A DNA stretch of 64,000 nucleotides, from NCBI RefSeq assembly GCF_046105845.1, contig NZ_CP151004.1; one strand, given 5' to 3'. The notes under the pieces were generated by a model. That model was not told where the DNA came from. It saw only the letters and a list, made by a program, of their open reading frames with translations, and made no database searches. Source of the DNA: Escherichia coli. Its GTDB lineage: Bacteria > Pseudomonadota > Gammaproteobacteria > Enterobacterales > Enterobacteriaceae. This document shows positions 11,596 to 30,845 of this stretch, one piece after another. Position 1 is the first letter of the stretch. Each line of letters opens with the position of its first letter. The translations under genes were made by a program, and so were the position numbers.

Positions 11596-13509
11596 TTACT
11601 TACGACCAGCCAGCAGTTCCAGCACTTCATCCACGCTGGTGGTGTGTGCCAGACGCTCGATGACAGTCTCATCATCCAGTGCATTGGTCAGGCTGGTGAT
11701 AACCTGAATGTGCTCGTTGTTACGGGCAGCAATACCAATCACCAGACGGGCAATGTCATCTTCTTCTTCACCGAAGCGCACGCCTTCCGGGTACTGGCAG
11801 AACACGACGCCCGTTTTGAGTACGCGATCTTTCGCTTCAACCGTACCGTGTGGCACCGCGATAGACTCACCCAGATAAGTCGGGGTCAGTTTTTCACGAT
11901 CCAGCATCGCCTGAACATATTCCGGCTCAACGTAACCGCCTTTCACCAGTTGCTCACCAGCAAAACGAATCGCTTCTTCTTTGGTGGCCGCTTTGCGACC
12001 GAGGAAGATGTTCTCCGCGCCTAGCTTGAACAGGTTAGCACTGGAATCGTCAAAGCTGTCTTTCAGACTGTCTTTCACTTTTACTTCGTTTTCAGTATGG
12101 CGCTGGGCAGCAACCAGACGTTCGGTCAGGCTGGTGTACAGGCCGCTGTCGAGGAAGTTGGTCAGCGAAATATGCTGTGCCTGCGGAACCTGGCGCATAG
12201 CGCGTTCGGTCAGGTCACGGTGAGTGATGACCAGGTCCACATCTGGCGGCAGGTTGTTGATCGCGCTGTTAGTGACCGAAATCTGCGACAGACCTGCATC
12301 CTGAATTTTCTTACGCAGCACGCCTGCGCCCATCGCACTGGAACCCATACCGGCGTCACAGGCAACGATGATTTTACGTACGTGGCTCAGGTCGTTAGTC
12401 ACATCGCCCGCAGACAGCGGGGACGCACCTTTAGACTCAGCTTTCATGTCCTGCATACGACGAGTTGCTGCTTCAATATCATCTTCTTCTTTCACTTTGC
12501 TGGTTTTCAGCAGAATGGCAGAGACAACGAAGGAGACAGCCATCGCCGCACACACACCCGCGATGTTAGCGAAATAAGCACCTTTTGGTGTCATCGCCAG
12601 TACAGCAAGGATAGAACCCGGAGATGCCGGAGAAACCAGACCACCGCCCAGGATAGTCAGCGTGAACACGCCAGTCATACCGCCGAGAATAACGGCCAGA
12701 ATCAGACGTGGATTCATCAGCACATACGGGAAGTAGATTTCGTGGATACCACCCAGGAAGTGGATGATTGCCGCACCGCCCGCAGATTGTTTAGCACTGC
12801 CACGACCAAAGAACATGTACGCCAGCAGCACGCCCATACCTGGACCTGGGTTAGCTTCAATCAGGAAGAAGATGGATTTACCCAGTTCATGGGACTGCTG
12901 AATACCCAGCGGCGAGAAGATACCGTGGTTAATGGCGTTGTTGAGGAACAGGATTTTCGCCGGTTCAACAAAGATAGACGCCAGCGGCAGCATGTCATGG
13001 ACAACCATGAAGTTAACGCCCGCAGCCAGCATTTTGGACAGGGCTTCAACAATCGGGCCAATGCCGAGGAATGCCAGAATAGCGAGGATCATCCCGATGA
13101 TGCCAGCGGAGAAGTTATTCACCAGCATCTCAAAACCGGATTTGATCTTACCGTCTACCCAGCGGTCGAAGTGCTTAATGCACCAGCCGCCCAGCGGACC
13201 TGCAATCATAGAACCGAGGAACATCGGCATGTCTGCGCCGACGATAACGCCCATGGTGGTAATGGCACCGACTACGCCGCCACGTTCGCCGCCTACCAGC
13301 TTACCACCGGTATAACCGATCAGCAGCGGCAGGAGATAAGTGATCATCGGCCCGACCAGCTTCGCCAGCGTTTCGTTCGGTAACCACCCTGTTGGAATAA
13401 ATAACGCGGTGATGATACCCCACGCGATAAACGCGCCGATATTTGGCATCACCATGTTGCTGAGGAAACGACCAAAGCTTTGCACTTTGATCTTAATATC
13501 GGATGACAT
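11596..13509 (-). CDS. mtlA: PTS mannitol-specific EIICBA
   Basis: 637-aa product [33 protein letters not shown]...; IIC membrane domain followed by IIB and IIA domains. Confidence 0.95.
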
Positions 13510-13652
13510 AAAAACACCCCTTCTTATGTTTGCTGTCGCGCAGGCTGGAAGCCCGAGGTTTTTTGTTAATGTGGCGGCAGAGGTAGCCGGACCTTGTAGA
13601 TACTGCGAAATCTGGCACTGAATCGGTTAACTGTCCAGTCGACGGCCTTTTG

Positions 13653-13829
13653 TGTGATATCGGTCACATAAATATAGGGGGTAGAGAGGTAATTGACGTG
13701 ATACTCATCACAAAACGCTTGTGTAAAAAAGCAACAAGGCGGCGATTTTCGCTAAAAATGGCATTTAAATGTGAGTAATGTCACATTTTTGTTTTGTTGG
13801 TTTGTTGAATCTTTGTGATCTGAATCACA
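13653..13829. promoter_or_regulatory. mtl promoter region with several CRP-type sites
   Basis: TGTGA-N6-TCACA matches: tgtgatatcggtcaca (13653-13668), gtgatactcatcaca (13698-13712), tgtgagtaatgtcaca (13770-13785), tgtgatctgaatcaca (13814-13829). Confidence 0.7.
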
Positions 13830-14045
13830 AGATATTTTTTTACGGCGTTCACCTGATGTGATCTACAGCATGTTATGCCTTCGTCATAAAATCGTTATGT
13901 AACTAAGCAACTCATCACCTCTAAAAATTATTCTTTGGTGTTATGGCGAGAATCGCGAACCCGAATTATTGTCAAAATATCAGCCTGACTCCCTTCTGGC
14001 TGCCAGCCAAAAAACAACACCGATAAACGTGAATCCGAGGCAGAT

Positions 14046-14408
14046 ATGTTTCTAAACTATTTCGCGTTGGGAGTGCTGATCTTCGTCTTTCTGGTGATTT
14101 TTTATGGAATCATCGCGATACATGACATCCCTTATCTGATTGCCAAAAAGCGCAACCATCCCCATGCCGACGCTATTCATACGGCGGGCTGGGTGAGCCT
14201 GTTTACTCTGCATGTTATCTGGCCGTTTCTGTGGATCTGGGCGACGCTCTATCAACCGGAGCGTGGCTGGGGTATGCAGTCACATGTTGCGTCGCAGGAG
14301 AAAGCGACTGACCCGGAAATCGCCGCACTTTCTGACCGAATTTCCCGGCTGGAGCATCAACTCGCCGCCGAGAAAAAGACTGACTATTCCACGTTCCCGG
14401 AGATCTAA
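14046..14408 (+). CDS. yibI: YibI inner-membrane protein
   Basis: 120-aa ORF with hydrophobic N-terminal half; divergent from mtlA, followed at 3 bp by yibH. Confidence 0.75.
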
Positions 14409-14410
14409 TT

Positions 14411-15547
14411 ATGGATCTATTGATCGTTTTAACTTACGTGGCGCTGGCGTGGGCGGTCTTTAAAATCTTCCGCATTCCGGTAAATCAGTGGACGCTGGCG
14501 ACGGCGGCGCTGGGAGGCGTGTTTCTGGTGAGTGGTTTGATTTTGTTGATGAACTACAATCACCCTTACACTTTTACCGCGCAAAAGGCAGTGATTGCGA
14601 TCCCTATCACGCCACAGGTGACGGGAATTGTTACTGAAGTCACCGACAAAAATAATCAGCTTATTCAAAAGGGCGAGGTGCTTTTTAAGCTCGACCCGGT
14701 TCGTTACCAGGCGCGAGTTGACAGACTTCAGGCTGACCTGATGACGGCGACGCATAATATAAAGACGCTGCGCGCGCAGCTCACTGAAGCGCAGGCCAAC
14801 ACCACCCAGGTTTCAGCGGAGCGCGACCGTCTGTTTAAAAATTATCAACGTTACCTGAAAGGCAGCCAGGCGGCGGTGAATCCGTTCTCGGAACGTGACA
14901 TCGACGATGCGCGGCAAAACTTCCTCGCGCAGGACGCGCTGGTGAAAGGCTCGGTGGCGGAGCAGGCGCAGATCCAGAGCCAGCTCGACAGTATGGTTAA
15001 CGGCGAGCAATCGCAGATTGTGAGCTTAAGAGCGCAACTTACTGAAGCAAAATATAACCTTGAGCAGACTGTCATTCGCGCACCGAGCAATGGCTACGTC
15101 ACTCAGGTACTGATCCGCCCAGGTACATACGCCGCTGCCTTGCCGCTGCGTCCGGTGATGGTCTTCATCCCCGAGCAAAAACGGCAAATTGTCGCCCAAT
15201 TTCGGCAAAACTCGCTGTTACGTCTGAAACCCGGCGATGATGCGGAAGTGGTGTTTAACGCGCTACCTGGGCAGGTGTTCCACGGTAAACTGACCAGTAT
15301 TTTACCTGTCGTGCCAGGCGGTTCGTATCAGGCGCAAGGGGTATTGCAATCATTAACGGTCGTGCCCGGCACGGACGGTGTGCTGGGAACCATTGAACTG
15401 GACCCCAACGATGATATCGATGCTTTACCTGACGGCATCTACGCCCAGGTGGCAGTTTACTCCGACCATTTCAGCCATGTTTCGGTGATGCGGAAGGTGC
15501 TGCTGAGAATGACCAGTTGGATGCATTATCTTTATTTGGATCATTGA
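14411..15547 (+). CDS. yibH: YibH, HlyD-family membrane fusion-type protein
   Basis: 378-aa ORF with N-terminal TM segment, long coiled-coil region and C-terminal beta-barrel-like region. Confidence 0.8.
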
Positions 15548-15617
15548 GACTTATATCACCTGTGTTTTGCGTGAGCCTGAGCCATACTGATATTTTTCCT
15601 CGCACAAAGGACTCGGC

Positions 15618-16226
15618 ATGAAACTCGTCGGTAGCTACACCAGCCCGTTTGTACGCAAACTTTCTATTCTGTTGTTAGAAAAGGGTATAACTTTCGAATT
15701 TATTAATGAACTGCCCTATAACGCGGACAACGGCGTGGCGCAATTTAACCCGTTAGGGAAAGTGCCGGTGCTGGTGACCGAAGAGGGCGAATGTTGGTTT
15801 GATTCGCCGATCATCGCTGAATATATTGAATTAATGAATGTCGCTCCGGCGATGTTGCCGCGCGATCCGCTGGAGTCGTTGCGGGTGCGCAAAATTGAGG
15901 CGCTGGCGGATGGCATTATGGATGCCGGGCTGGTATCGGTGCGTGAACAGGCGCGTCCGGCGGCGCAGCAGTCTGAAGATGAATTGTTACGCCAGCGGGA
16001 GAAAATCAACCGCAGTCTGGATGTGCTGGAAGGATATCTGGTCGATGGCACACTCAAAACCGATACGGTCAATCTGGCGACTATCGCCATTGCCTGTGCC
16101 GTCGGATATCTCAATTTCCGCCGCGTTGCGCCAGGTTGGTGTGTCGACCGCCCACACTTAGTCAAACTGGTCGAAAACCTGTTTAGCCGCGAAAGTTTTG
16201 CTCGCACCGAACCGCCAAAGGCTTGA
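15618..16226 (+). CDS. yibF: glutathione S-transferase-like protein YibF
   Basis: 202-aa [34 protein letters not shown]..., GST N-terminal thioredoxin-fold signature. Confidence 0.85.
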
Positions 16227-16323: not shown

Positions 16324-17715
16324 ATGACAACCGAAACGCGTTCCCTCTATAGTCAACTTCCGGCTATTGATCGCTTATTGCGCGATAGCTCCTTCCTTTC
16401 TTTGCGTGATACTTATGGCCACACCCGCGTAGTGGAATTGCTGCGTCAGATGCTTGACGAAGCGCGAGAAGTGATTCGTGACAGCCAGACGCTGCCCGCA
16501 TGGTGTGAAAACTGGGCGCAAGAAGTCGATGCCCGACTGACGAAAGAGGCGCAGAGCGCGCTGCGTCCGGTGATCAACCTGACGGGAACCGTGCTGCATA
16601 CCAATCTTGGGCGAGCTTTACAGGCAGAAGCCGCGGTGGAAGCCGTTGCGCAGGCTATGCGTTCGCCAGTGACCCTCGAGTACGATCTGGACGACGCCGG
16701 ACGCGGACATCGCGATCGGGCGCTGGCGCAGCTGCTGTGCCGCATTACGGGAGCGGAAGATGCCTGTATCGTTAATAACAATGCGGCGGCGGTGTTATTG
16801 ATGTTGGCGGCCACTGCCAGCGGGAAAGAGGTGGTGGTATCTCGCGGCGAACTGGTGGAGATTGGCGGCGCGTTTCGTATTCCTGATGTCATGCGTCAGG
16901 CAGGCTGCACCCTACACGAAGTGGGGACCACCAACCGCACGCACGCTAATGATTATCGTCAGGCGGTGAATGAAAATACCGCGCTGTTGATGAAAGTACA
17001 TACCAGTAACTACAGCATTCAGGGATTCACCAAAGCGATAGATGAAGCGGAACTGGTGGCGCTCGGCAAAGAGCTGGATGTTCCCGTAGTGACTGATTTA
17101 GGCAGTGGCTCGCTGGTTGATCTTAGCCAGTACGGTTTGCCGAAAGAGCCAATGCCGCAGGAGTTGATTGCGGCGGGCGTCAGTCTGGTGAGCTTCTCCG
17201 GCGACAAGTTGTTAGGCGGGCCGCAGGCAGGAATTATTGTTGGTAAAAAAGAGATGATCGCCCGCCTGCAAAGCCACCCGCTGAAGCGTGCATTACGCGC
17301 GGATAAAATGACCCTCGCGGCGCTGGAAGCCACGTTGCGTCTTTATTTACACCCTGAGGCGCTGAGTGAAAAATTACCGACCCTGCGTCTGCTTACCCGC
17401 AGCGCAGAGGTCATTCAAATCCAGGCACAACGTTTACAGGCCCCCCTTGCGGCACATTACGGCGCGGAGTTTGCGGTACAGGTTATGCCATGTCTTTCGC
17501 AGATTGGCAGTGGTTCGCTGCCGGTTGATCGCCTGCCGAGTGCGGCATTAACGTTTACACCCCATGATGGACGCGGTAGCCACCTTGAGTCATTAGCCGC
17601 CCGCTGGCGTGAATTGCCAGTGCCGGTGATTGGTCGTATTTATGACGGACGATTGTGGCTGGATTTACGCTGCCTAGAAGATGAGCAACGGTTTTTGGAG
17701 ATGTTGTTGAAATGA
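16324..17715 (+). CDS. selA: L-seryl-tRNA(Sec) selenium transferase
   Basis: 463-aa [24 protein letters not shown]...; stop overlaps selB start (ATGA). Confidence 0.95.
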
Positions 17716-19556
17716 TTATTGCGACTGCCGGACACGTTGACCACGGCAAAACAACCTTATTGCAGGCGATTACTGGCGTAAATGCCGATCGTCTGCCGGA
17801 AGAAAAAAAGCGCGGCATGACTATCGATCTCGGCTATGCCTACTGGCCGCAGCCGGATGGTCGCGTGCCTGGTTTTATCGACGTACCCGGTCATGAAAAG
17901 TTTCTTTCCAACATGCTGGCGGGCGTTGGTGGTATCGATCACGCGCTGTTGGTGGTGGCGTGCGATGACGGCGTGATGGCACAGACCCGTGAGCATCTGG
18001 CGATTTTGCAGCTGACCGGTAATCCGATGCTGACAGTGGCGCTGACCAAAGCCGATCGCGTGGACGAAGCGCGTGTTGATGAGGTTGAACGCCAGGTAAA
18101 GGAGGTGCTGCGGGAATACGGTTTTGCTGAGGCAAAACTGTTTATCACCGCAGCAACCGAAGGTCGGGGAATTGATGCCCTGCGCGAGCATCTGCTTCAG
18201 TTACCAGAACGCGAACACGCCAGCCAACATAGTTTCCGCCTCGCGATCGACCGCGCATTTACCGTAAAAGGTGCCGGGCTGGTCGTCACCGGTACGGCGT
18301 TAAGCGGGGAAGTGAAGGTAGGCGATTCACTATGGCTGACTGGTGTAAATAAACCGATGCGCGTGCGTGCGCTACATGCGCAAAATCAGCCAACAGAAAC
18401 TGCCCATGCCGGGCAGCGTATCGCGCTTAACATCGCGGGTGATGCGGAAAAAGAGCAGATTAACCGTGGCGACTGGCTGCTTGCCGATGCGCCGCCGGAG
18501 CCGTTCACACGGGTGATTGTCGAGCTTCAAACCCATACACCGCTGACCCAGTGGCAGCCGCTGCATATTCACCACGCCGCCAGCCACGTCACGGGACGCG
18601 TTTCGCTGCTGGAAGATAACCTTGCCGAGCTGGTGTTCGACACGCCGCTGTGGCTGGCGGATAACGATCGCTTAGTGCTGCGCGATATCTCGGCCCGCAA
18701 CACGCTGGCGGGGGCGCGTGTGGTGATGCTTAACCCGCCGCGTCGCGGTAAACGTAAGCCGGAATATCTGCAATGGCTGGCGTCACTGGCACGGGCGCAG
18801 AGCGATGCCGATGCGTTATCTGTTCATCTGGAACGCGGCGCGGTTAACCTTGCCGATTTCGCTTGGGCACGGCAGCTCAACGGCGAAGGGATGCGCGAAC
18901 TATTGCAACAGCCTGGCTATATTCAGGCTGGTTATAGCTTGTTGAATGCGCCGGTTGCCGCCCGCTGGCAGCGGAAAATTCTCGACACATTAGCGACTTA
19001 TCATGAGCAACATCGCGATGAACCTGGTCCTGGGCGCGAACGTCTGCGACGTATGGCGTTGCCAATGGAAGATGAAGCGCTGGTACTGTTGCTGATTGAA
19101 AAGATGCGCGAAAGCGGCGACATCCTCAGTCATCACGGCTGGCTGCATCTGCCAGATCACAAAGCGGGATTCAGCGAAGAGCAGCAGGCCATCTGGCAAA
19201 AAGCAGAGCCGCTGTTTGGTGACGAGCCGTGGTGGGTGCGTGATCTGGCAAAAGAGACGGGAACCGACGAGCAGGCAATGCGCCTGACGCTACGCCAGGC
19301 GGCGCAGCAAGGAATTATTACCGCGATCGTTAAAGATCGTTATTACCGTAACGATCGGATTGTCGAGTTTGCCAATATGATCCGCGATCTCGATCAGGAG
19401 TGTGGTTCAACCTGCGCGGCGGATTTCCGCGATCGCTTAGGTGTAGGCCGAAAGCTGGCAATTCAGATTTTGGAATATTTTGACCGCATTGGCTTTACGC
19501 GGCGTCGTGGAAATGATCATTTATTGCGCGACGCATTATTATTTCCGGAAAAATAA
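17712..19556 (+). CDS. selB: selenocysteine-specific elongation factor
   Basis: 614-aa ORF with GTPase motifs [10 protein letters not shown] and DVPGH; C-terminal winged-helix extension. Confidence 0.95.
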
Positions 19557-19614
19557 TGAGATAATTAATTAAGATTAATTAGGAAACACTCTAAAAATCT
19601 TATTAATTTTTAAA

Positions 19615-19641
19615 AAAGCACATTCGGATGTGCTTTTTTTA
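19615..19641 (+). terminator. rho-independent terminator after selB
   Basis: agcacattcggatgtgct stem-loop followed by a T7 run. Confidence 0.6.
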
Positions 19642-19734
19642 TGGCCTCTTATAAAAAGAGCAATAGCGGTCATGTTTTCAAATAAAAACACTTCGTAAGC
19701 TTCTCGCCCTTTTATACTCGTTCAGGAGTGTGTT

Positions 19735-20884
19735 ATGGCTGCTTCCACCTTTTTTTATTCCTTCCGTTAATGTCATTGGTGCAGATTCTTTTAAAGATGC
19801 GATGAATATGATGGCGGAATATGGTTTTCGCCGTACATTAATTGTGACTGATAGTGTGCTAACAAAATTAGGTATGGAGGGTGATGTACAAAAAGCATTA
19901 CAGGAACGTGATATTTTTAGCGTAATTTATGATGGTACGCATCCTAACCCGACCACAAAAAACGTCGCAGAAGCTCTTAAAATGCTGACGGAAAATAATT
20001 GCGATAGCGTGATTTCTTTAGGTGGTGGTTCCCCGCACGACTGCGCAAAAGGCATTGCGCTGGTGGCAGTTAACGGCGGCGATATTCGCGATTACGAAGG
20101 CGTGGATCGCACGGCGAAACCGCAACTACCGATGATTGCCATCAACACCACGGCGGGTACTGCATCAGAAATGACCCGTTTTTGCATTATCACCGACGAA
20201 GCACGCCACATCAAAATGGCGATTGTGGATAAACACGTCACCCCGCTGCTTTCTGTGAACGATTCGACTCTGATGATGGGTATGCCGAAGCCGTTAACCG
20301 CCGCCACCGGGTTGGACGCGCTGACTCACGCCATCGAAGCGTATATCTCTATTGCGGCAACGCCGATCACTGACGCCTGCGCGCTGAAAGCAATGACCAT
20401 GATCGCGGAAAACTTACCGATAGCGGTTGAAGATGGTCACAACGGCAAAGCGCGTGAAGCAATGTCTTACGCTCAGTTCCTCGCGGGCATGGCGTTTAAT
20501 AATGCTTCACTGGGATACGTACACGCGATGGCGTATCAGTTGGGTGGCTTCTATGACCTGCCGCACGGCGTTTGTAATGCCATTCTGCTGCCGCACGTTC
20601 AGTTATATAACAGCAAAGTTGCCGCCGCACGCTTTGACTGCGCGGCGGCTATGGGCGTGAATGTCACAGGCAAAAACGACGCGGAAGATGCGCAAGCCTG
20701 CATTAAAGCGATTCGCGAACTGGCGAAGACAGTGAATATCCCGGCAGGCCTGCGCGATCTGAATGTGAAAGAAGAAGATTTTGCGGTGCTGACCACCAAT
20801 GCCCTGAAAGATGCGTGTGGATTCACTAACCTTATTCAGGCAACCCATGAAGAAATTGTGGCGATATATCGCGCCGCAATGTAG
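19735..20884 (+). pseudogene. iron-containing alcohol dehydrogenase (YiaY/FucO family) paralog with an apparent +1 frameshift after codon 7
   Basis: ATG at 19735 with RBS aggag reads [15 protein letters not shown]; removing one T from the 7-T run restores [18 protein letters not shown]...; rest of ORF 19730..20884 is a full-length Fe-ADH (GGGSPHD motif, His-rich metal site). Confidence 0.6.
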
Positions 20885-21244
20885 TTCTCTTCCCGCAACG
20901 GCTGGCGCGTTGTCAGCCGTTTTGCTGAAGATATTACTGTATTTATGATATGGATATCAGACTATTAAAATATATTCAGACCTGTTTTGGAATATCTCAA
21001 TAATATTCGTTTCATTTGCGGTCGGGGGAAGAATTACCTACTATTCGCTGAGCGTTAAGGCCTGCTAATTGATCAACTTATGATCAATCAATATGGAAAA
21101 GTTATTGTTAAATAAATAACATATCGCACGCTGAATACGTCATGAATTTTTTTCAAGAAATATGTTATTAATAGTAAAGATGATCAAATTTATAAGCTTT
21201 TTTTATCTGTAAGCTGCGCCCCTTTTTCATATGGAGATAAAAAC

Positions 21245-22396
21245 ATGGCAGCTTCAACCTTTTTCATTCCCTCTGTGAATGTAATTGGCGCGGATTCATT
21301 AAAAGATGCAATGAATATGATGGCGGATTATGGTCTGCGTCGTACATTAATTGTGACAGGCCGTGTAATGGGCAAGAGCAGCGTGTTGGTGCAACTCCAA
21401 CAAGCCTTGCAGGAACGCAATATCGTAAGCGTTGTTTATAATGGCTCCCAACCGAACCCAACGACGAAAAACGTGGCTGCGGGTTTAAAAATATTGCAGG
21501 AAAATAATTGTGATAGCGTTATCTCCTTAGGCGGCGGTTCTCCACATGACTGTGCAAAAGGGATTGCGCTGGTGGCAACCAACGGCGGCGATATCCGGGA
21601 TTACGAGGGCGTAGACCGCTCGGCGAAACCGCAATTGCCAATGATTGCCATCAACACCACGGCGGGTACGGCGTCTGAAATGACCCGTTTCTGCATCATT
21701 ACCGATGAAACGCGCCACATCAAAATGGCAATTGTGGATAAACACGTCACCCCAATTCTTTCTGTTAATGATTCTACGTTAATGATGGGGATGCCGGAGT
21801 CACTGACCGCCGCCACTGGGATGGACGCATTAACCCATGCCATCGAAGCATATGTCTCTATTGCGGCAACGCCGATCACTGATGCTTGTGCATTGAAAGC
21901 GGTCACCATGATTGCTGAAAACCTGCCGCTGGCAGTAGCAGACGGAAGCAATGCCCAGGCGCGTGAAGCTATGGCTTACGCCCAGTTCCTCGCGGGTATG
22001 GCGTTCAACAACGCATCGCTGGGTTACGTTCATGCAATGGCGCACCAGTTAGGTGGTTTTTACAACCTGCCTCACGGGGTGTGTAATGCTGTTTTGCTGC
22101 CGCATGTTCAGGAGTTCAACAGCAAAGTTGCCGCTGCACGCCTGCGTGACTGCGCGGCGGCAATGGGTGTGAATGTAATGACAATGAACGAAGCTGAAGG
22201 TGCGCAAGCTTGCATTAATGCCATTCGCGAGCTGTCGAAGAAAGTGAATATCCCGGCAGGCCTGCATGAACTGGATGTTAAAGAAGAAGATATTCCGGTA
22301 CTGGCCACCAATGCCCTGAAAGACGCATGTGGGTTTACAAACCCAATTCAGGCAACCCACGAAGAAATTATGGCGATTTATCGCGCCGCAATGTAA
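21245..22396 (+). CDS. yiaY: iron-containing alcohol dehydrogenase (YiaY family), intact, 383 aa
   Basis: [26 protein letters not shown]...; Fe-ADH motifs; length matches what I recall for K-12 YiaY; which of the two copies is the true ortholog is uncertain. Confidence 0.8.
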
Positions 22397-22410
22397 TTAC
22401 CCTTCCTCCA

Positions 22411-22440
22411 GCGGCTGGCGTTTTGTCAGCCGTTTTTTTA
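22411..22440 (+). terminator. terminator hairpin after the second alcohol dehydrogenase gene
   Basis: cggctggcgttttgtcagccg followed by a T run; a related hairpin follows the first copy at about 20893-20915. Confidence 0.5.
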
Positions 22441-22521
22441 ACTATCTCAAAATTCGCGTTTTTTGAGATAGTTTCTCTTTCCTGCTATACACTATCTCAA
22501 TATTACGCTTTTTTGAGATAG
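22441..22521. promoter_or_regulatory. two copies of a 31-bp palindromic element upstream of the fic gene (candidate operators)
   Basis: actatctcaaaattcgcgttttttgagatag (22441-22471) and actatctcaatattacgcttttttgagatag (22491-22521); each is an inverted repeat tatctcaa...ttgagata; 50-bp spacing; ends 5 bp before the fic start. Confidence 0.6.
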
Positions 22522-22525
22522 GCAA

Positions 22526-23821
22526 ATGGTTATCAAATCACCTCCCACGCTGATTCCTTTATCACACTTATCGGGTGAGGAACTCCAGGCCCACCTGCGC
22601 TTTAACCGGGTTACCGATGAAAAAGGACGTTATCTACCTTTTGATGAGTTGCAGTACCGCATCAAAAAAGGAGAAAACGTCGAAGTGGCGTGGACGCTTA
22701 CCCGTCTGGCGCGCAACGCGGCGATCCAACGAATCAATTATTGCAATGAAGCGGGTGAACAGGCCGGATACAACATTACCCCGGTGATTGCAGAAGCGTG
22801 CGAGCTTGTCGACAAACGTGCTACCGCGCTGGCGCTGAAAGATCAGACTGAACGGTTACGCGGGGCCGGAGCCGAGTTAAGCCAGTTACGCCTGGAAGAG
22901 CCGATCACCAGCTCCCAGCTGGAAGGTGCGAATACTACAACGCTGGTGGCGAGAAAAATGCTGGAAACAGGGCGGTCGCCACGCACTGAAGACGAGCATA
23001 TGATTGCAGGAAATGCCCGACTGATGGCGGAAATTCCGCACTTACTCGCAGAACCGCTGACACCTGCGCTTATTCGCCAGTTACATGCCATTGGTATGGG
23101 TGGAATCAATGACGCGAAATATCGTCCGGGAGAATTTCGTGAAACAGATGATGTTGTGATCGCCGACTATGACGGCAATATTGTGCACCAACCGCCCGCT
23201 GCGGCATTGTTGCCGGAACGGCTGGAAAAAGTTTGCCAGTGGTTAAACAGCCATGAAGGGTATATTCACCCGTTAATCCGTGCCTGCATTCTGCATTTTA
23301 TGCTGGCCCATGAACATCCATTTCGCGATGGCAACGGGCGCACCAGTCGGGCACTGTTTTACTGGTATATGCTGAAATCGGGCTACGATGTTTTTAAATA
23401 TATTTCCATCAGCCGTTTTCTTCATGCTGCGCCAGTCAAATATGCTGCCAGCTACCAGTACACTGAATCAGACGGTATGGATCTGACTTATTTCCTTGAG
23501 TATCAGGCGGGTGTCATTAAACGTGCTTTGCAAAACTGGCAGCAGCATATTGATGAAATTATGCAACGAAGTGCAAAACTCGATAGTGTGCTGTTTAGCT
23601 CTGGTGTGCTTAAACGCCTGAATCCGCGCCAGGTAACGCTCCTGAATGTGATGCTCGCCAATCCGGGGAAAGAGTACACAGTTGCTGAAATTAGCGCGAG
23701 CCTGGGCGTCTCTGATAATACGGCTCGAGCTGATTTACGGACAATTGTTAAAGAAGGGTTTGCGCAAGAGAAAAGAATTAATAACCAGCAAGCAGTGTAC
23801 GTCGCACACTACCCGCTGTAG
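22526..23821 (+). CDS. Fic-domain protein (putative AMP-transferase), 431 aa, with N-terminal inhibitory-type motif and C-terminal HTH-like region
   Basis: Canonical Fic motif [12 protein letters not shown] at residues 264-275; S-x-x-x-E-G match (SSQLEG) at residues 129-134; C-terminal about 70 aa resembles a winged helix-turn-helix. Confidence 0.85.
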
Positions 23822-23928
23822 CTTTTGCCCGTAAATTCGTGATAGCCGTCGTAAAGCTGTTACCGACTGGCGAAGATTTCGCCAGCCACGTCTACCCTTG
23901 TTATACCTCACACCGCAAGGAGACGATC

Positions 23929-25467
23929 ATGACCAATAATCCCCCTTCAGCACAGATTAAGCCCGGCGAGTATGGTTTTCCTCTTAAGTTAAAAGCCCGT
24001 TATGACAACTTTATTGGCGGCGAATGGGTAGCCCCTGCCGATGGTGAGTATTACCAGAACCTGACGCCGGTGACCGGGCAGCTGCTGTGCGAAGTGGCGT
24101 CTTCGGGCAAACGAGACATCGATCTGGCGCTGGATGCTGCGCACAAAGTGAAAGATAAATGGGCGCATACCTCGGTACAGGATCGCGCGGCGATTCTATT
24201 CAAGATTGCCGATCGGATGGAGCAGAACCTCGAACTGTTGGCGACGGCAGAAACCTGGGATAACGGCAAACCCATTCGCGAAACCAGTGCTGCCGACGTG
24301 CCGCTGGCGATTGACCATTTCCGCTATTTTGCCTCGTGTATTCGGGCGCAGGAAGGCGGGATCAGTGAAGTCGATAGCGAAACCGTGGCCTATCATTTCC
24401 ACGAACCATTAGGCGTGGTGGGGCAGATTATCCCGTGGAACTTCCCGCTGCTGATGGCGAGCTGGAAAATGGCCCCTGCGCTGGCGGCGGGCAACTGCGT
24501 GGTGCTGAAACCCGCACGGCTTACCCCGCTTTCTGTACTGCTGCTAATGGAAATCGTCGGTGATTTACTGCCGCCGGGCGTGGTGAACGTGGTCAACGGC
24601 GCGGGTGGGGAAATTGGCGAATATCTGGCGACCTCGAAACGTATCGCCAAAGTGGCGTTTACCGGCTCAACGGAAGTGGGCCAACAAATTATGCAGTACG
24701 CCACGCAAAACATTATTCCGGTAACCCTGGAGCTGGGCGGCAAGTCGCCAAATATCTTCTTTGCTGACGTGATGGATGAAGAAGATGCCTTTTTCGATAA
24801 AGCGCTGGAAGGCTTTGCACTGTTTGCCTTTAACCAGGGCGAAGTTTGCACCTGTCCAAGCCGTGCTTTAGTGCAGGAGTCTATCTACGAACGCTTTATG
24901 GAACGCGCCATCCGCCGTGTCGAAAGCATTCGTAGCGGTAACCCGCTCGACAGCGTGACGCAAATGGGCGCGCAGGTATCTCACGGGCAACTGGAAACCA
25001 TCCTCAATTACATTGATATCGGCAAAAAAGAGGGCGCAGATGTGCTTACCGGCGGGCGGCGCAAGCTGCTGGAAGGCGAACTGAAAGACGGCTACTACCT
25101 CGAACCGACGATTTTGTTTGGTCAGAACAATATGCGCGTGTTCCAGGAGGAGATTTTTGGCCCGGTGCTGGCGGTAACCACCTTCAAAACGATGGACGAG
25201 GCGCTGGAGCTGGCGAATGACACGCAATATGGCCTGGGCGCGGGCGTCTGGAGCCGCAACGGTAATCTGGCCTATAAGATGGGGCGCGGCATTCAGGCCG
25301 GGCGCGTGTGGACCAACTGTTATCACGCTTACCCGGCACATGCGGCGTTTGGCGGCTACAAACAATCAGGTATCGGACGCGAAACCCATAAGATGATGCT
25401 TGAGCATTACCAGCAAACCAAGTGCCTGCTGGTGAGCTACTCGGATAAACCGTTGGGGCTGTTCTGA
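23929..25467 (+). CDS. aldB: aldehyde dehydrogenase B
   Basis: 512 aa from [17 protein letters not shown] (RBS aggag upstream); aldehyde dehydrogenase family with catalytic Cys region; the 542-aa ORF is a 5-prime extension. Confidence 0.9.
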
Positions 25468-25744: not shown

Positions 25745-25930
25745 GTGAAAAGTGCAGACGTGATCGCCATCCTGAAGCAGCATGGCTGGGAACATATTCG
25801 AACCCGTGGCAGTCATCATCAGTTCCGCCACCCTGTTCATCCGGGTCTGGTGACGGTTCCGCACCCTAAAAAAGATATTAAGCCCGGTACGCTGGCGCAA
25901 ATTGGGCGTCAGGCTGGTTTAACATTTTAA
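25745..25930 (+). CDS. hicA: HicA-family toxin
   Basis: 61-aa basic protein (GTG start) ...LKQHGWEHIRTRGSHHQFRHP...; size and G-S-H-H motif fit HicA; immediately followed by hicB. Confidence 0.75.
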   Translation: MKSADVIAILKQHGWEHIRTRGSHHQFRHPVHPGLVTVPHPKKDIKPGTLAQIGRQAGLTF

Positions 25931-25946
25931 AATTTCAGGAGGCAAT

Positions 25947-26357
25947 ATGTTTTATCCCGCCTATATCCACAGTGATCCTGACGGCAGCGCCAGCGGTTTT
26001 TTCCCTGATGTTCCAGGCTGTTATTTTGCTGGTGATACGCTGGACAACGCTTTCCAGGATGCGCGAAGTGCACTGGTCGCGCACTTCGAAACCTTATGCG
26101 AGATGAATGAAGAGTTGCCGCTTCCAGGCTCTGTGGAAACACATCTGGTCCAGCGTGCGCAGGACTTTATTGGCGGGCAATGGTTGCTGGTGGATATCAA
26201 TATGAATCAATTCGAAGGTCGGGCTGAACGTATCAATATTACGATGCCAAAAAGATTACTGAACAAGATTGATACCTACGTGCGCAATAACCCAGACTAT
26301 GCCAACAGAAGTGCGTTTCTGGCGGAAGCTGCCCGGCGTGTATTGCCGGGCGTTTAA
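25947..26357 (+). CDS. hicB: HicB-family antitoxin with C-terminal ribbon-helix-helix-like region
   Basis: 136 aa; N-terminal HicB-like fold; C-terminal RINITMPKRLLNKIDTYV...RSAFLAEAARR resembles an RHH DNA-binding domain; 16-bp gap after hicA. Confidence 0.75.
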   Translation: MFYPAYIHSDPDGSASGFFPDVPGCYFAGDTLDNAFQDARSALVAHFETLCEMNEELPLPGSVETHLVQRAQDFIGGQWLLVDINMNQFEGRAERINITMPKRLLNKIDTYVRNNPDYANRSAFLAEAARRVLPGV

Positions 26358-26402
26358 TCTCGCGTTTCGATGGTTGGCGGGCAACCGCACCGATATGTTG
26401 AT

Positions 26403-26432
26403 ACTGATAAGACGCGTTAAGCGTCGCATCAT
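26403..26432. repeat. REP-like element at the hicB / glycosidase 3-prime junction
   Basis: ctgataagacgcgttaagcgtcgcatcatg resembles a REP unit; a partial REP-like gcctgatgcgacg lies near 25500 after aldB. Confidence 0.5.
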
Positions 26433-28393
26433 GCGCTGGTTTCCTCATTCACCCAGATCCGCATTTCGCCTTCACCCCGGTTGGCCCAGCTAAACCACGG
26501 GATAAAGGTCAGGGTTTGCGGCTGGCGTTTGGCTGGCGCACTGTCGTAATGCCACAGCGGTTGTTGTTCTGGATTGCTCTGTTCATACCGGTAACCCGGT
26601 GCCTGGATTAAGATCTTATGGCTGAACAATCCCTTACCTTCAAATGTCGTAAATGGCGCATCGGCGGGCAGCCACAGATTATGCAGTGACTCGCCGTTGT
26701 CGGCCTGTTCCAGGCAATACACCAGCGGGCCGCGCTGAATCGCCACTTTTCCGGCGACGTGACGCACCAGCGGGTTACCGTAAACGCGGCGTACCGGCAT
26801 CGGCAAAGTCAGATTCAGCGTATCGCCCTCCTGCCATTCGCAGGTAATGTGCAAATACCCTTTACGAATATCCTGCTCGACCTCTTCCCCATTCAATATG
26901 ATCTGCGGCTGTGTGCACCAGTCCGGCAGACGTAAAGCCAGCGTATGACGCACCGGCTGGGGCGATTCAACCGCAATTGTCACCTGTTCCTGCCACGGAT
27001 AGTTTCCGCTAACCCGCAGACGCAGCGTGCCATTTTCTACCGGCACTTCCATGCTGTTTCCTGCGTAGATGTTGATATACAACGCATCTTCACGCGGCGT
27101 GTAGAGATAATGACCAATCGAGGTTAGCACGCGGGCGATATTTGGCGGACAACAAGCGCAACCAAACCAACGCTGGCGGATCGGCTTAACGTGATCGTAG
27201 ATATGGTTGAATTTTAACGTTTTTGGATGCACTTCCAGCGGATTAACGTAGAAGAAATGTTTGCCATCCAGCGCCATGCCGCCGAGCACGGTGTTGTACA
27301 GTGCGCGCTCCATCACATCGGCATATTGACTGTCGCCTTCCATTTCCAGCATTCGCCGGGCGAACATCATCAGGCCGATGGAAGCACAGCTTTCGGCGTA
27401 TACCGTGTCATTCGGCAGATCGTAATCGCTGCTGAACGCTTCGCCGCTGCTTTGTGAGCCAATGCCGCCGGTAATATATAACTGACGCTGGGCCATATTG
27501 TTCCACAGCCGCAGGCAGTCCTGACGCTTGCTTTCATCGTGACTTAAACGCGCGAGATGCGCGACACCGGTCATCAGATATACAAAGCGTACTGCATGTC
27601 CGATGGCGGTTTGTTGCTGTGCGATGGGCAAATGCGCCTGGCTGTAGGCTTTATCTTTCACCATCCACGCCGGGCCGTAGGTGTGCCAGTGCGAGGTCTG
27701 CCCGCGCTTTTCATATTCCTGGTCGTAATAGTGCGGTTGCGCACCACGCTGTTCGACAAAATAGTTCGTCAGCGCCAGGTAGCGCGGCTCTTCGGTCACT
27801 TCATACAGGCGCATTAGTGCCAGTTCAATTTCCGGGTGACCAGGATAACCGTGTAACTTACTTTCACCTGGACCAAATACGCTGTCGATATGATCGGCCA
27901 GACGGCAAACCACTTCCAGCAAGCGCCGCTTGCCCGTGGCCTGGAGGAAGGCGACTCCGGCTTCAATCAGATGACCGGCGCAGTAAAGTTCATGACACTC
28001 CGCCAGATTGCTCCAGCGTTCTTCGGGCGCTTTTACCGTAAAGTAAGTATTGAGATAGCCATCTTCGCACTGGGCGGAAGCGACCAGTTCGATTACCTCG
28101 TCAGCGGTTTTTTCCAGTTCGGCATCCGGCTTCTGGCACAGCGACCAGGCTACCGCTTCCAGCCATTTGGCGACGTCGCTGTCCTGAAACACCATCCCGT
28201 AAAATTCACCGTCTTGCAGTCCTGCGGCAATGCGAAAGTTTTCAATCGCATGGCTGGGTTCCGCTTCTGGGATACGATCGTTCAAGGCATCCCACTGATA
28301 AGGAATCACCACGTCGCGGACCAGTTGTTGGTACTGACCGAGGAACGGATCGCTGACCGTCAGTTTATGCAGATCGACTTCCGAAATGTTCAT
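26429..28393 (-). CDS. glycoside hydrolase family 127-like protein (DUF1680 / beta-L-arabinofuranosidase-like)
   Basis: About 654 aa from MNISEVDLHKLTVSDPF; AAGGAG RBS 6 nt upstream of this start; Cys-rich C-terminal half as in HypBA1-type enzymes; assignment is from family resemblance by eye. Confidence 0.65.
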   Translation of the reverse strand: MNISEVDLHKLTVSDPFLGQYQQLVRDVVIPYQWDALNDRIPEAEPSHAIENFRIAAGLQDGEFYGMVFQDSDVAKWLEAVAWSLCQKPDAELEKTADEVIELVASAQCEDGYLNTYFTVKAPEERWSNLAECHELYCAGHLIEAGVAFLQATGKRRLLEVVCRLADHIDSVFGPGESKLHGYPGHPEIELALMRLYEVTEEPRYLALTNYFVEQRGAQPHYYDQEYEKRGQTSHWHTYGPAWMVKDKAYSQAHLPIAQQQTAIGHAVRFVYLMTGVAHLARLSHDESKRQDCLRLWNNMAQRQLYITGGIGSQSSGEAFSSDYDLPNDTVYAESCASIGLMMFARRMLEMEGDSQYADVMERALYNTVLGGMALDGKHFFYVNPLEVHPKTLKFNHIYDHVKPIRQRWFGCACCPPNIARVLTSIGHYLYTPREDALYINIYAGNSMEVPVENGTLRLRVSGNYPWQEQVTIAVESPQPVRHTLALRLPDWCTQPQIILNGEEVEQDIRKGYLHITCEWQEGDTLNLTLPMPVRRVYGNPLVRHVAGKVAIQRGPLVYCLEQADNGESLHNLWLPADAPFTTFEGKGLFSHKILIQAPGYRYEQSNPEQQPLWHYDSAPAKRQPQTLTFIPWFSWANRGEGEMRIWVNEETSA

Positions 28394-28403
28394 CTTGTGC
28401 TCC

Positions 28404-29804
28404 TTAAGGCTGTACATGACGCTGACGCAGGTCGCTAGCTATGCGTGACATCATAGGGTTATTGAGTTTGCAAAAGCGGATCGCCATCGCCAGCAGCAGG
28501 TGGAATAGCGCAGGCAGCAATGTTTCCATCGCCGCGATCCCGCCAAGCGAACTGGCGGTCTGGTTTTCCACGCCTGGCTGGTAGGCGACAAAAATAAACA
28601 GCAGGCTGATGATCCCGGCGCTGGAGGCCCAGGCCAGCTTGATGAAAAACAGATTGAAGGCGAAGTTCATGCCGGAAGAACGTACGCGGGTTTTCCACTC
28701 GCCGTAGTCATCGGCAAAGGCCATCAATGAGAAGTGCAGTGGCAATGTGAAGCCAAGAATCACGCCATTACCGAGGATCACCGCCAGCCACAGCGTTTGA
28801 TAAGCCGGGCCGGAGGGCAGGAACCACATCAACACCGCCAGCGCGGCGAGGAGCAGGTTGGTGTAGTAGTAAATTTTGACGGTATCGAAACGCCGCGTTA
28901 ACGGGCTGACAATCACCGAGCCGATAATGGAGGCGAAGGTGACCATGGTGAAGAACAGCGACGTGTAGCCCGTACTGCCTTGTAAGACGTAGGTAATGAA
29001 GTACATATACCCACCGCCGCGAATATTAAAGACGTTAATCAGCAGGAAAGACATGACCAGCATCAGCAGCAGTTGGTCGTTGTTCCGCAGCCCGGCAAGA
29101 TGTTCGCGCAGGGTAAATTTCCCCATTGTGGAGAGTGGCACCCGTTCACGAACCCAGAAGAAACAGCACAGGAACATCACCACGGCAATGGCGCACAATA
29201 CGCCGACGCCCAGTTGATAGCCGCGCGCGGCATTACCCTGACCGAAGAGATCCACCATCCACGGCAGGCCAACCGAAACCAGAAATCCCGCTACGCCGCA
29301 GAGAACGAATCGCCAGGACTGGCAGGAGATCACTTCATTGTGGCGGGTGGTCATGGTGTTGATCAGCGCGCAGTACGGCACGTTGATGACGGTATAACCG
29401 ACTGAAAGGAGCAGGTAAGTGCCGAACGCCCAGGCGATTTTTACTCCCATGCTGGCATCTGGCACGGTGAACGTCAGGATGCCGATAATGCCGATGGGAA
29501 TGGCAATCCACAACTGCCACGGACGAAAGCGCCCCCAGCGACTTTGCGTCCGGTCGGCAATGACGCCCATCACCGGGTCGGAGATGGCATCAAACACGCG
29601 CAGTGCAATAAACAGCGTGCCGACCAGCGCCGGAGTTAAGCCAAAAACGTCGGTGTAGAAAAAGGTGAGAAAGTTCATGATCAGGCAAGTTATTACGGTG
29701 CCGCCTGCGTCACCCAGGCCGTAGCCTATTTTTTCCCGTACAGATAACGCATCGTCAATTTTACCTTTAGCGATATCAGCGGTAGTAATCGGTGTAGAGG
29801 TCAT
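28404..29804 (-). CDS. GPH-family (glycoside-pentoside-hexuronide) cation symporter
   Basis: 466-aa 12-TM protein; N-terminal GYGLGD motif and overall MelB/YicJ/XynT-like pattern. Confidence 0.8.
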
Positions 29805-30029
29805 AGATATTCCTCGTGAATAGGGAGCAATTTTTAGTTTTATTGCAATGACCTGATTAATTCTGCCGTGAACGGGAATATCAACAAGGCGAGAAAAGAG
29901 TAAAAAAAGGTGACGATTCCGACCTGAATTTAAAAGTGTGAATTGGATCAGGTGAAATTAATGTTTTTGATTAATAATCAAAAGGTAATGTGTTTAATCA
30001 TTAATGAATAAGCGGGAAATTACATATCA

Positions 30030-30845
30030 ATGCTCGAATTATCCATGACGTTACCGATTAAAGTGCAAAATGGTGGATTATTTATTTCCCGTGGCGTAGG
30101 GAGGCATCCGGCAAGGCGGCTGGAGTCATGGGAAATTATCTTTGTCGAAAAAGGTCGATTAACGATTCAGGAAGAAGAGCGGATATTTCTGGTCGATGCG
30201 GGAGAGAGTTTATTACTCTGGCCGAACCGACAGCATGTTGGGGTAGAGGATTTTCCCGCCGATCTCAAATTTTACTGGCTGCATTTTGAGGTTAAAGCGC
30301 CGGATAGCGACCCGCGCTGGCTCACTCATCTTAGCGTGCCGCAACAAACGAAGGTTGCCGATCCGCAGGCGCTGGTGGCCCTGTTTCGCCAGTTCTTAAG
30401 CGAACAGGAAAAGCATCAGCGCACTCCGGCGCTGGAGTTTATTGTGCTGCTGATTTTGCAGCAACTCACCCGTGACGCGCGTCTTGATGAACAGGCCGAT
30501 GCCGCAGGTACCACGCTTGCCTGGAAAGCGCAGAAACTGATCCGCACGCAATATCATCGCCCGCTTTCCACGGCGCTTTTAGCCCGCGAGCTGTACTGCA
30601 ATGCCGATTATCTTGGGCGCGTCTATCGGCGGGTGTTTCATCTGACGTTAACAGAAGCAATCCATCGCCAGCGAGTGCGCGAAGCCGAAAAGCTGTTAAT
30701 TAGCGAAGCGCGATCGCTCACTGAAGTGGCTGCGTTGTGCGGGTTTAATGACGTTGGCTATTTCCGGCAGATTTTTCGCAAACACACCGGTTTAACGCCA
30801 GCAGCGTGGAAGCGGCGTTACAGCAAGGAACATATCAATTCGTAG
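30030..30845 (+). CDS. AraC/XylS-family transcriptional regulator
   Basis: 271-aa ORF with cupin-like N-terminal sugar-binding region and C-terminal AraC-type HTH; divergent from the symporter. Confidence 0.8.
   Translation: MLELSMTLPIKVQNGGLFISRGVGRHPARRLESWEIIFVEKGRLTIQEEERIFLVDAGESLLLWPNRQHVGVEDFPADLKFYWLHFEVKAPDSDPRWLTHLSVPQQTKVADPQALVALFRQFLSEQEKHQRTPALEFIVLLILQQLTRDARLDEQADAAGTTLAWKAQKLIRTQYHRPLSTALLARELYCNADYLGRVYRRVFHLTLTEAIHRQRVREAEKLLISEARSLTEVAALCGFNDVGYFRQIFRKHTGLTPAAWKRRYSKEHINS

Follow-up and report, generated by a model that had tools for sequence, protein, structure and literature searches.

The single yiaY gene between selB and Fic/aldB is overwritten, in the E. coli DNA examined here (a stretch of 64,000 nucleotides from a rare lineage, hereafter the window), by a block that spans 19557 to ~22435 (about 2.9 kb) and consists of two complete units in tandem, each made of a leader, a yiaY gene and a terminator. 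Taken as a whole, the data make it likely that the tandem was imported, that its first gene (copy 1) is dead and that the second (copy 2) is a working enzyme with probable use of NADPH. The list of open reading frames returned two co-oriented homologs of Fe-dependent alcohol dehydrogenases (Fe-ADH), at 19735-20884 and 21245-22396, copy 1 occupying the 5' slot on the selB side and copy 2 the 3' slot on the Fic/aldB side. An earlier note made from the bare sequence had described two co-oriented genes of about 383 aa, roughly 80% identical at the protein level by eye. Number, orientation and coordinates were confirmed, as was the length of copy 2 (383 aa), and BLASTP returned 83% amino acid identity (315/378), with 80.3% nucleotide identity in the codon alignment; copy 1, at 1150 nt, is not a multiple of three and is frameshifted, a point that had escaped the note. 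The features of the block are as follows.

19557..19734, + strand: left edge of the block and copy-1 leader, with the selB terminator hairpin, conserved boxes and SD
19735..20884, + strand: copy 1, a yiaY-type Fe-ADH pseudogene by its sequence, with a frameshift, H267Y, loss of codon 301 with L300F, and P367L
20885..20929, + strand: copy-1 3' flank with a terminator-like hairpin, homologous to the region downstream of Escherichia yiaY
20930..21104, + strand: AT-rich spacer without match in sequence searches
21105..21244, + strand: copy-2 leader, a diverged second selB-yiaY intergenic region according to alignments with yiaY upstream regions and between the two units
21245..22396, + strand: copy 2, an intact 383-aa yiaY-type Fe-ADH with metal ligands and GGGSPHD (796 bits)
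22397..22435, + strand: copy-2 intrinsic terminator and right edge of the block, from the terminator scan and the rise in identity to E. coli CE10

Both edges of the block were sharp. Identity to E. coli CE10 stayed at about 99% until the selB stop codon (19556), collapsed across 19557-19667 and was about 85% in the remainder of the leader (19668-19734); on the right side it rose from about 85% to about 95% immediately past the copy-2 hairpin. The flanking genes showed 97.8% identity to K-12 (selA) and 98.4%, 97.0% and 96.2% identity to CE10 (selB, fic and aldB respectively), and 16 kb of backbone were 96.3% identical to the best complete E. coli genome, values that assign the backbone of the window to a deep E. 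coli lineage. An origin of the window outside E. coli, raised by matches of 84-88%, was rejected on the basis of the same 96-98% identity of the flanking genes and of the 16-kb backbone.

The distribution of the tandem was then defined. In agreement with the earlier note, K-12 carries one gene between selB and aldB, and a single yiaY was present at the locus in all 5,426 of 5,426 complete E. coli genomes, so that the pair is not ordinary core content of the species. Neither copy was found at more than 90% identity in these genomes (0/5,426), which under-sample the relatives of the window since its backbone belongs to a deep lineage. The copy-2-type protein (P0001, P0008, P0009 and P0010) was confined to contigs bearing the name E. 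coli, 63 of them among the matches listed, P0008 being indexed in 56 collection blocks. The identical tandem arrangement was shared by 22 contigs, which came from numerous independent samples (NCBI isolates, Logan, ENA), varied in flank haplotype and in some cases reached 65-388 kb or more; the order selB-ADH1-ADH2-Fic-aldB was observed in every carrier contig of sufficient length. Between carriers, selB and aldB differ by 2-4% and the block by about 0.5%. No tandem pair was detected in other species within +/-6 kb of 80 species-representative loci.

Each copy has its own upstream region and a related downstream hairpin, as previously noticed. The copy-1 leader contains the selB terminator hairpin GCACAT-TCGG-ATGTGC with its T run (19618-19640), the boxes GGTCATGTTTTC and CGTAAGCTTCTCGCCCTTTT, kept across the yiaY upstream regions of Escherichia and Citrobacter in the alignment, and the SD AGGAG at 19724-28. 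Alignment with 12 yiaY upstream regions and pairwise alignment of the two units indicated that the copy-2 leader retains a diverged version of the selB-yiaY intergenic boxes GATCAnATTT and GTAAGCTGC..CCCTTTT, together with a degenerate remnant of the selB terminator with a TGAATAC loop and the boxes GATCAAATTTAT and TGTAAGCTGCGCCCCTTTTT. Downstream of copy 1, the hairpin CGGCTGGCGCGTTGTCAGCCG followed by TTTT (20899-20923) folds as CGGCTG-GCGCGTTGT-CAGCCG (20899-20919, with TTTT at 20920-23); it fails a simple terminator scan, having a 9-nt loop and a short T run, and this 3' flank is nearest to E. whittamii among the Escherichia yiaY downstream regions. The copy-2 hairpin GCGGCTGGCGTTTTGTCAGCCG (22410-22434), with a T run after it, passes the scan. 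The 360-bp gap between the two copies has a GC content of 33.6%. Its portion 20930-21104 returned no match in the 5,426 complete E. coli genomes (blastn, word 11) or in the 80 species-representative loci, and 20930-21244 contained no Rfam family and gave no E. coli match in distant mode either; one weak sigma-70-like site occurs at 20975-21004.

Both genes belong to the family of K-12 YiaY (b3589; NF007363 'L-threonine dehydrogenase', a group III Fe-ADH), with which they share length, the ligands D194, H198, H263 and H277 at the same positions, the GGGSPHD motif, the selB-aldB slot, and a homologous leader and terminator. Scores against the NCBIfam YiaY equivalog NF007363 were 798.1 bits for copy 1 (frame-corrected), 796.1 for copy 2 and 866.6 for K-12 YiaY, with a cutoff of 581. 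The two loci differ in having one unit in K-12 and two here, copy 1 being frameshifted and carrying H267Y and copy 2 carrying D39G/N40R with a rewritten 39-52 loop. The closest solved structure is Zymomonas mobilis ADH2 (PDB 3OWO/3OX4), aligned over its full length with an E value of 9e-159 and identical active-site motifs; the metal ligands and GGGSPHD of both copies align to it.

The frame of copy 2 is intact from its native start, whereas that of copy 1 is not. The dN/dS of copy 2 against E. coli yiaY is 0.07 and its polymorphism among carriers amounts to two nonsynonymous and five synonymous changes, seven sites only, a ratio not significantly different from that of selB and aldB (p=0.14); by these measures copy 2 is under purifying selection. 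The residues Gly39-Arg40 (GGC CGT, 21359-64) replace Asp39-Asn40 and the whole segment 39-52 is rewritten, the loop being nearer to MNKSGVVKQV of the Zymomonas enzyme than to LTKLGMAGDV of K-12; the Zymomonas enzyme has Asp39 and is NAD-dependent, unlike copy 2 with its Gly39-Arg40. In five solved NAD-type homologs the residue aligned with Gly39 is Asp. Among about 225 relatives, Asp39 is kept in about 215, and Gly39 is limited to the copy-2 cluster and a Superficieibacter/UBA5654 branch.

An Asp at this position of NAD-type enzymes clashes with the 2'-phosphate of NADP, and NADP-type enzymes have Gly instead (PMC8836905). K-12 YiaY is itself listed with NAD+-dependent L-threonine dehydrogenase activity (PMC5125639). 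With Gly39-Arg40 the carboxylate that keeps out the 2'-phosphate is lost, so that copy 2 probably accepts NADP(H) beside or instead of NADH, and an Arg directly after Gly39 would favour phosphate binding. The NADP(H)-dependent group III reductases YqhD and YugJ, with a GGGS loop at beta2-alpha2, likewise have Gly at the first loop position, where it makes room for the 2'-phosphate (PMC8836905); copy 2, however, has GRVM, is distant to YqhD (E 2e-22) and is a YiaY by descent. A substitution of the same type, D494G in Clostridium thermocellum AdhE, creates NADPH-linked alcohol dehydrogenase activity with the NADH activity kept (PMC6370804), an analogy drawn from a bifunctional enzyme of a laboratory-evolved strain whose D494 is likened to D39 by substitution type only.

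A change of cofactor is not assured by a GRVM loop that shares Gly39 with the NADP type and is not the canonical GGGS. On this ground Gly39-Arg40 might have no effect on the cofactor, or merely weaken NAD binding, leaving a neutral foreign allele beside a dead neighbour, and the homolog '8zwd NAD(P)-dependent' retains Asp, so that dual use seems possible without Gly. We consider this explanation a serious one, somewhat short of probable. It has to accommodate the near-general conservation of Asp39 in relatives, the steric exclusion of the 2'-phosphate by Asp in structural work (PMC8836905), the NADPH activity gained by AdhE upon Asp to Gly replacement (PMC6370804), the putative contribution of Arg40 to phosphate binding, and the fixation of Gly39-Arg40 in 22/22 carriers of a constrained gene. 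A more far-reaching reading is put forward only tentatively, as rather doubtful in its full extent: copy 2 would be a natural YiaY whose cofactor use was broadened or switched to NADP(H) by D39G/N40R and the remodelled beta2-alpha2 loop, and the tandem would capture a gene replacement under way, in which a xenolog with new redox properties was added, the NAD-type neighbour became dispensable and decays, and the block is spreading by recombination.

As for the origin of the pair, identity to K-12 YiaY was 88-89.5% (amino acids) and 82-83% (nucleotides) for both copies, with 97% amino acid identity for E. albertii, and identity to every Escherichia yiaY was 83-85% for copy 1 and 80-82% for copy 2. 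Divergence from E. coli yiaY, and from every other Escherichia yiaY, amounts to 16-19% for the two copies against 2-4% from E. coli in the flanks, and the question of which one is the yiaY ortholog, left unresolved in the earlier note, is answered by sequence as neither. The dS was about 1.0 for each copy against K-12 yiaY and for copy against copy, and 0.82 for copy 1 against CE10; reference values were 0.58 between E. coli and E. albertii yiaY and 1.4 between E. coli and Citrobacter. Recent gene conversion between the copies was not detected, 90-nt windows reaching at most 88% identity. These data bear out the earlier suggestion of an acquisition or an old duplication rather than a recent amplification.

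Trees were built by bootstrapped neighbour-joining only. Escherichia and the two copies formed a clade in 81-100% of replicates, and E. coli, E. whittamii and E. albertii grouped without both copies in 86-98% (60% when only third codon positions were used). Copy 1 grouped with yiaY of Escherichia sp. E1V33 with moderate bootstrap (54-90%), while copy 2 joined Salmonella in 4%. On these trees the copies are inside the Escherichia yiaY clade and outside the coli/whittamii/albertii crown, each farther from E. coli than is E. albertii yiaY. A tandem duplication in situ, in which the copies are each other's closest relatives, was not supported, as the two were sisters in only 2-20% of replicates. 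Because they are not sisters, the pair points to an import of old alleles and not to a local duplication, and its members fit the description of imported xenologs better than that of duplicates arisen in this genome.

Alternatively, an ancient duplication in situ could have been inherited vertically in a deep E. coli lineage and its second copy lost in the other Escherichia, without any import. Complete and collinear units with homologous leaders and terminators, the position of both copies in the Escherichia clade and the deep branching of the window would suit such a history. It appears unlikely, however, in view of the dS of about 0.8-1.0 to E. coli yiaY, far above the 2-4% nucleotide divergence of the adjacent genes and above the coli-albertii value, the abrupt drop of similarity at the selB stop, the lack of sister grouping, and a diversity among carriers that is about 4-8 times lower in the block than in its flanks, where an old resident segment should show the reverse. 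The import is deduced from this discordance, no matching donor having been found: the species-representative scan gave nothing above 88% amino acid identity, and in a collection of 5.8 billion proteins no closer match occurred beyond the E. coli carriers, except for one possibly chimeric contig. In this contig (L093, encoding P0012, 90% identical to copy 2), a Kluyvera-like 5' third joins copy-2 sequence at the most conserved part of the gene. It is a single contig of 2.8 kb that may be an assembly chimera and was set aside as proof of intragenic recombination.

Copy 1 was analyzed for the nature of its lesions. Its ATG (19735), preceded by a good SD, opens 11 residues before a TAA at 19768-70, a stop reached because a T7 run at 19750-56, in place of the T6 of CE10, adds a base eight codons in and shifts the frame. 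The long open reading frame of 384 aa, ending with TAG at 20882-84, is open only from a GTG at 19730, one base past the SD, and NCBI annotates copy 1 as a 381-aa 'L-threonine dehydrogenase' starting from CTG 19739, not as a pseudogene. Since T7 was present in 21/21 independent carrier contigs, a sequencing error was excluded. A phase-variable contingency gene was likewise rejected, as the run length was invariant in these contigs and no intact, in-frame T6 protein occurred among the 5.8 billion. Besides the frameshift, copy 1 shows H267Y (TAT 20534-36), the loss of codon 301 with L300F, and P367L; all carriers share T7, Y267 and the missing codon 301 as fixed differences. H267Y was dropped as proof of inactivation, human ADHFE1 having a natural Tyr at this position (PMC5125639).

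Polymorphism in copy 1 comprised 11 nonsynonymous changes, one of them a nonsense (K324*), to one synonymous, a ratio that differs from that of the other genes (Fisher p ~1e-9) and fits neutrality (p=0.32). Secondary lesions were found independently, K324* in three contigs and an 11-bp deletion in L095, and gene calls were truncated or absent in L094-L097. Having lost purifying selection and gathered these lesions, copy 1 is on this evidence a pseudogene now evolving neutrally, its body cut off from its own SD and ATG; some translation from GTG 19730, CTG 19739 or by slippage on T7 may occur, weak if present.

Were that translation efficient, both copies could be working, sub-functionalised enzymes, with the active site of copy 1 altered by H267Y. 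This is a quite improbable explanation, despite the open 384-aa frame, the annotated 381-aa product, the low long-term dN/dS of copy 1 (0.05-0.07), the Tyr of functional ADHFE1 (PMC5125639) and the homopolymer as a possible slippage site. The SD lies 1 nt from the GTG and 6 nt from the out-of-frame ATG, the 11:1 ratio, the nonsense codon and the deletion agree with neutral decay, gene calls are truncated or missing in four contigs, and the T run, being invariant, does not suggest phase switching. An assembly artefact, such as the joining of two alleles from a mixed sample, is scarcely credible: aberrant public yiaY entries (P0007, P0011 and P0013, whose high scores had suggested hybrids of the two copies and which proved to be K-12-type YiaY with internal duplications) and the possibly chimeric L093 do exist, but the same arrangement recurs in the 22 contigs, independently sampled, partly long and with differing flanks.

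The import of the tandem probably proceeded as follows. An unsampled Escherichia-related lineage would have carried the two old alleles already side by side, and E. coli would have taken up the whole block at once through homologous recombination, with selB on one side and the yiaY terminator/Fic region on the other as anchors; later recombination would have carried it between E. coli backgrounds. Copy 2 would have been the working enzyme, and because it worked, copy 1, which has the NAD-type Asp39, would have become dispensable and decayed. In prokaryotic genomes it is a general pattern that gene families expand through xenologs gained horizontally and that one member then decays. The present locus resembles it in its adjoining non-sister homologs, a divergence discordant with the flanks and the ongoing loss of one copy, and differs in that neither member is native to the host species and the resident copy is gone.

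The agreement of discordant divergence, sharp edges and low diversity within the block argues for overwriting by foreign DNA, and makes this locus a clean, well-bounded case in which an E. coli core metabolic gene would have been replaced by a block of an unsampled Escherichia-related lineage. The pair is an instance of ordinary genome turnover and does not constitute a new kind of system. It also corrects public annotation, the upstream 381-aa 'L-threonine dehydrogenase' with a CTG start being most simply read as a pseudogene, and it provides in copy 2 a natural Asp39 to Gly variant with Arg40 of a poorly understood enzyme, which may be useful for cofactor engineering of Fe-ADHs or for studies of YiaY function.

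The two Fe-dependent alcohol dehydrogenase (Fe-ADH) homologs, the upstream copy 1 and the downstream copy 2, lie in the following gene order:

16324-17715, plus strand: selA
17712-19556, plus strand: selB
19735-20884, plus strand: copy 1, Fe-ADH homolog
21245-22396, plus strand: copy 2, Fe-ADH homolog
22526-23821, plus strand: Fic-family gene
23929-25467, plus strand: aldB
25745-25930 and 25947-26357: HicA/HicB, downstream of aldB
26429-28393, minus strand: GH127 beta-L-arabinofuranosidase-like gene
28404-29804, minus strand: MFS transporter
30030-30845: AraC regulator

Pairwise alignment of the two copies returned identities of 83% for protein (315/378) and 80.3% for DNA, confirming the co-oriented, diverged homologs described in the earlier note. 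Each scored about 797 bits on NF007363, the NCBIfam YiaY equivalog (cutoff 581 bits; K-12 YiaY, 867), and both retain the metal ligands D194, H198, H263 and H277 and the GGGSPHD motif; by this curated model both are YiaY-family members. The separate upstream regions and related downstream hairpins noticed earlier were also found: each copy is preceded by its own selB-yiaY intergenic region and followed by the hairpin CGGCTGGCG(C/T)(G/T)TTGTCAGCCG and a T run. The copy-2 leader carries the conserved boxes GATCAnATTT and GTAAGCTGC..CCCTTTT together with a degenerate remnant of the selB terminator loop. Since each copy has its own intergenic region, the block (19557 to about 22435) consists of two complete leader-gene-terminator units. 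A weak Rfam match to the Salmonella sRNA STnc40 at 19571-19640 (24.7 bits, gathering score 45, E=0.32) is most likely just the selB terminator hairpin, which it overlaps. For aldB, a mechanical ORF starts at GTG 23839 (23839-25467, 542 aa); the start at 23929 (512 aa) is the one used by homologs and by gene calls in identical contigs, so GTG 23839 is probably not the real start.

K-12 shows the order selB-yiaY-aldB, with the single yiaY given in the earlier note, and strain CE10 the order selB-yiaY-Fic-aldB. The tandem is not ordinary core content, as each of 5,426 complete E. coli genomes holds a single yiaY; in these genomes neither copy was matched at >90% identity, and the inter-copy spacer gave zero matches even in a sensitive search. 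The order selB-ADH1-ADH2-Fic-aldB was found again in 22 contigs of independent origin, from isolates and metagenomes (carriers), and all records of the copy-2-type protein (entries P0001, P0008, P0009 and P0010) are from contigs named E. coli (63 listed; P0008 is indexed in 56 collection blocks). The arrangement is thus a genuine, though rare, E. coli haplotype. The best match of the window backbone over 16 kb (positions 1-16000; YadA-like, lldP, mtlADR, yibH region) among the complete genomes was only 96.3%, which places the window in a deep-branching E. coli lineage without a close complete reference.

The flanks are of E. coli grade: identity to K-12 is 97.8% for selA, and identity to CE10 is 98.4% for selB, 97.0% for fic and 96.2% for aldB. 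Against any Escherichia yiaY, identity reaches only 83-85% for copy 1 and 80-82% for copy 2. Similarity to CE10 stays at about 99% until the selB stop, collapses right after this point and recovers to about 95% once the copy-2 terminator (near 22435) is passed. Each copy shows a synonymous divergence of about 1.0 from K-12 yiaY, as do the two copies from each other; for copy 1 against CE10 the value is 0.82 (E. coli-E. albertii, 0.58; E. coli-Citrobacter, 1.4). These values bear out the earlier proposal of acquisition or old duplication rather than recent amplification.

Bootstrapped neighbour-joining trees were built from protein, all sites, codon positions 1+2 and 3 and separate domains, also with Salmonella added. 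Both copies fell within the Escherichia yiaY clade (bootstrap 81-100%) and outside the coli+whittamii+albertii crown (86-98%; third positions alone, 60%). Duplication in situ was rejected, as the copies are not sisters (2-20%); copy 1 grouped (54-90%) with the yiaY of Escherichia sp. E1V33, a divergent allele. Searches of 100,044 species-representative genomes and of 5.8 billion proteins yielded nothing closer to either copy. Carriers differ by about 0.5% in the block versus 2-4% in selB and aldB. We infer that the pair, made up of old alleles and already in tandem, was imported once; the donor would be an unsampled Escherichia-related lineage, entry would have occurred by homologous recombination, and the block may then have spread between E. 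coli backgrounds.

The E1V33 yiaY (6001-7152 of its contig) is itself an outlier, with about 85% nucleotide identity to yiaY elsewhere in Escherichia, against 92-93% identity of the E1V33 selA and selB to the window, a hint that alleles of yiaY are replaced repeatedly within the genus.

The earlier note had read two genes of about 383 aa; this holds for copy 2, while copy 1 (1150 nt) is not an intact gene. Its ATG at 19735 lies 6 nt past a good SD (AGGAG), and a T7 run at 19750-56 (ACC-TTTTTTT-ATT, versus ACC-TTTTTT-ATT in CE10, with leader, SD and start otherwise conserved) brings the frame to a stop at TAA 19768-70; the long ORF can be read only from GTG 19730, one base beyond the SD. T7 occurred in 21/21 contigs covering the run, Y267 and loss of codon 301 in 22/22, and no in-frame copy 1 was present among the 5.8 billion proteins. 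Polymorphism among carriers was 11 nonsynonymous (including K324* in 3 contigs) to 1 synonymous, compared with 2:5 in copy 2, 7:71 in selB and 10:99 in aldB (p about 1e-9), and fitted neutral expectation (p=0.32). One carrier (L095) has an 11-bp deletion, gene calls are truncated or missing in some others, and NCBI deposits elsewhere give a 381-aa product with a CTG start. Copy 1 is thus a YiaY pseudogene without an intact frame. Its long-term dN/dS is still low (0.05-0.07), which places the inactivation late in the history of the allele. A phase-variable switch was rejected on the T run. H267Y alters a proposed substrate-contacting residue; it was not counted as proof of inactivation, as Tyr is natural at the equivalent position of human ADHFE1.

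The codon deletion (RLRDC to RF-DC) falls in a short GC-rich stretch at 20624-20645 (copy-2 counterpart, 22133-22157), which is expanded four-fold (RLRDCAAA x4) in the public K-12-type YiaY entry P0013; the shared stretch suggests a slippage-prone site. Entries P0007 and P0011 carry other internal duplications.

Directly upstream of the Fic-family gene, two near-perfect palindromes, TATCTCAA(A/T)A-N6-TTTTTTGAGATA, at 22441-22473 and 22493-22521, about 52 bp apart and conserved in CE10, look like candidate paired operator sites; autoregulation is plausible given the HTH-like C-terminus of the protein. This gene occurs in about 1,574 of the 5,426 complete genomes and is absent from K-12; its score of 42 bits on the NCBIfam Fic adenylyltransferase model falls well short of the cutoff of 550. 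Its nonsynonymous:synonymous ratio among carriers, 17:24, is far above the 17:170 of selB+aldB (Fisher p=2.6e-6), suggesting relaxed or diversifying selection. The right flank is itself variable: in place of the window genes at 25745-30845, K-12 has yiaW-yiaV, as does one carrier (L097).

A further contig, L093 (Logan SRR21291477, 1-2805), has one ADH only between selB and Fic. From about nt 430 the gene, with one difference, and Fic are almost identical to the copy-2 region; the selB tail, the intergenic region and the opening ~430 nt of the gene resemble Kluyvera (78% nt, 88% aa). The contig represents either a genuine recombinant between genera or an assembly chimera whose junction falls within the conserved GGGSPHD...NTTAGT stretch.

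Copy 2 is intact and constrained and appears to be the working gene, probably with a different cofactor pocket. It shows five changes at columns invariant in 30 relatives, including D39G, L42M, G46S and D66N, clustered in the beta2-alpha2 region, where residues 39-52 differ from DNMLTKLGMAGDVQ. Gly39 aligns with Asp in 5/5 of the closest solved homologs; Asp39 occurs in about 215/225 family members, and Gly39 otherwise only in a Superficieibacter/UBA5654 branch. Copy 2 thus lacks the NAD-type Asp39 in an otherwise canonical protein. In structural work on YugJ, this Asp of NAD-dependent group III enzymes (ZmADH2, DhaT) clashes with the 2'-phosphate of NADP(H), and NADP-dependent members have Gly there (PMC8836905). 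An Asp-to-Gly change in C. thermocellum AdhE, comparable in kind and possibly in position, conferred NADPH-linked ADH activity with NADH activity kept (PMC6370804). The copy-2 loop is GRVM, whereas the canonical NADP-type loop is GGGS. Taken together, Gly39 and these two studies make NADP(H) use by copy 2 somewhat more probable than not, the physiological substrate of YiaY itself being uncertain.

The tandem represents a known gene family in a new and rare arrangement of alleles, for which recombinational import and pseudogenisation offer a good explanation; the possible cofactor change of copy 2 would add one testable functional twist.
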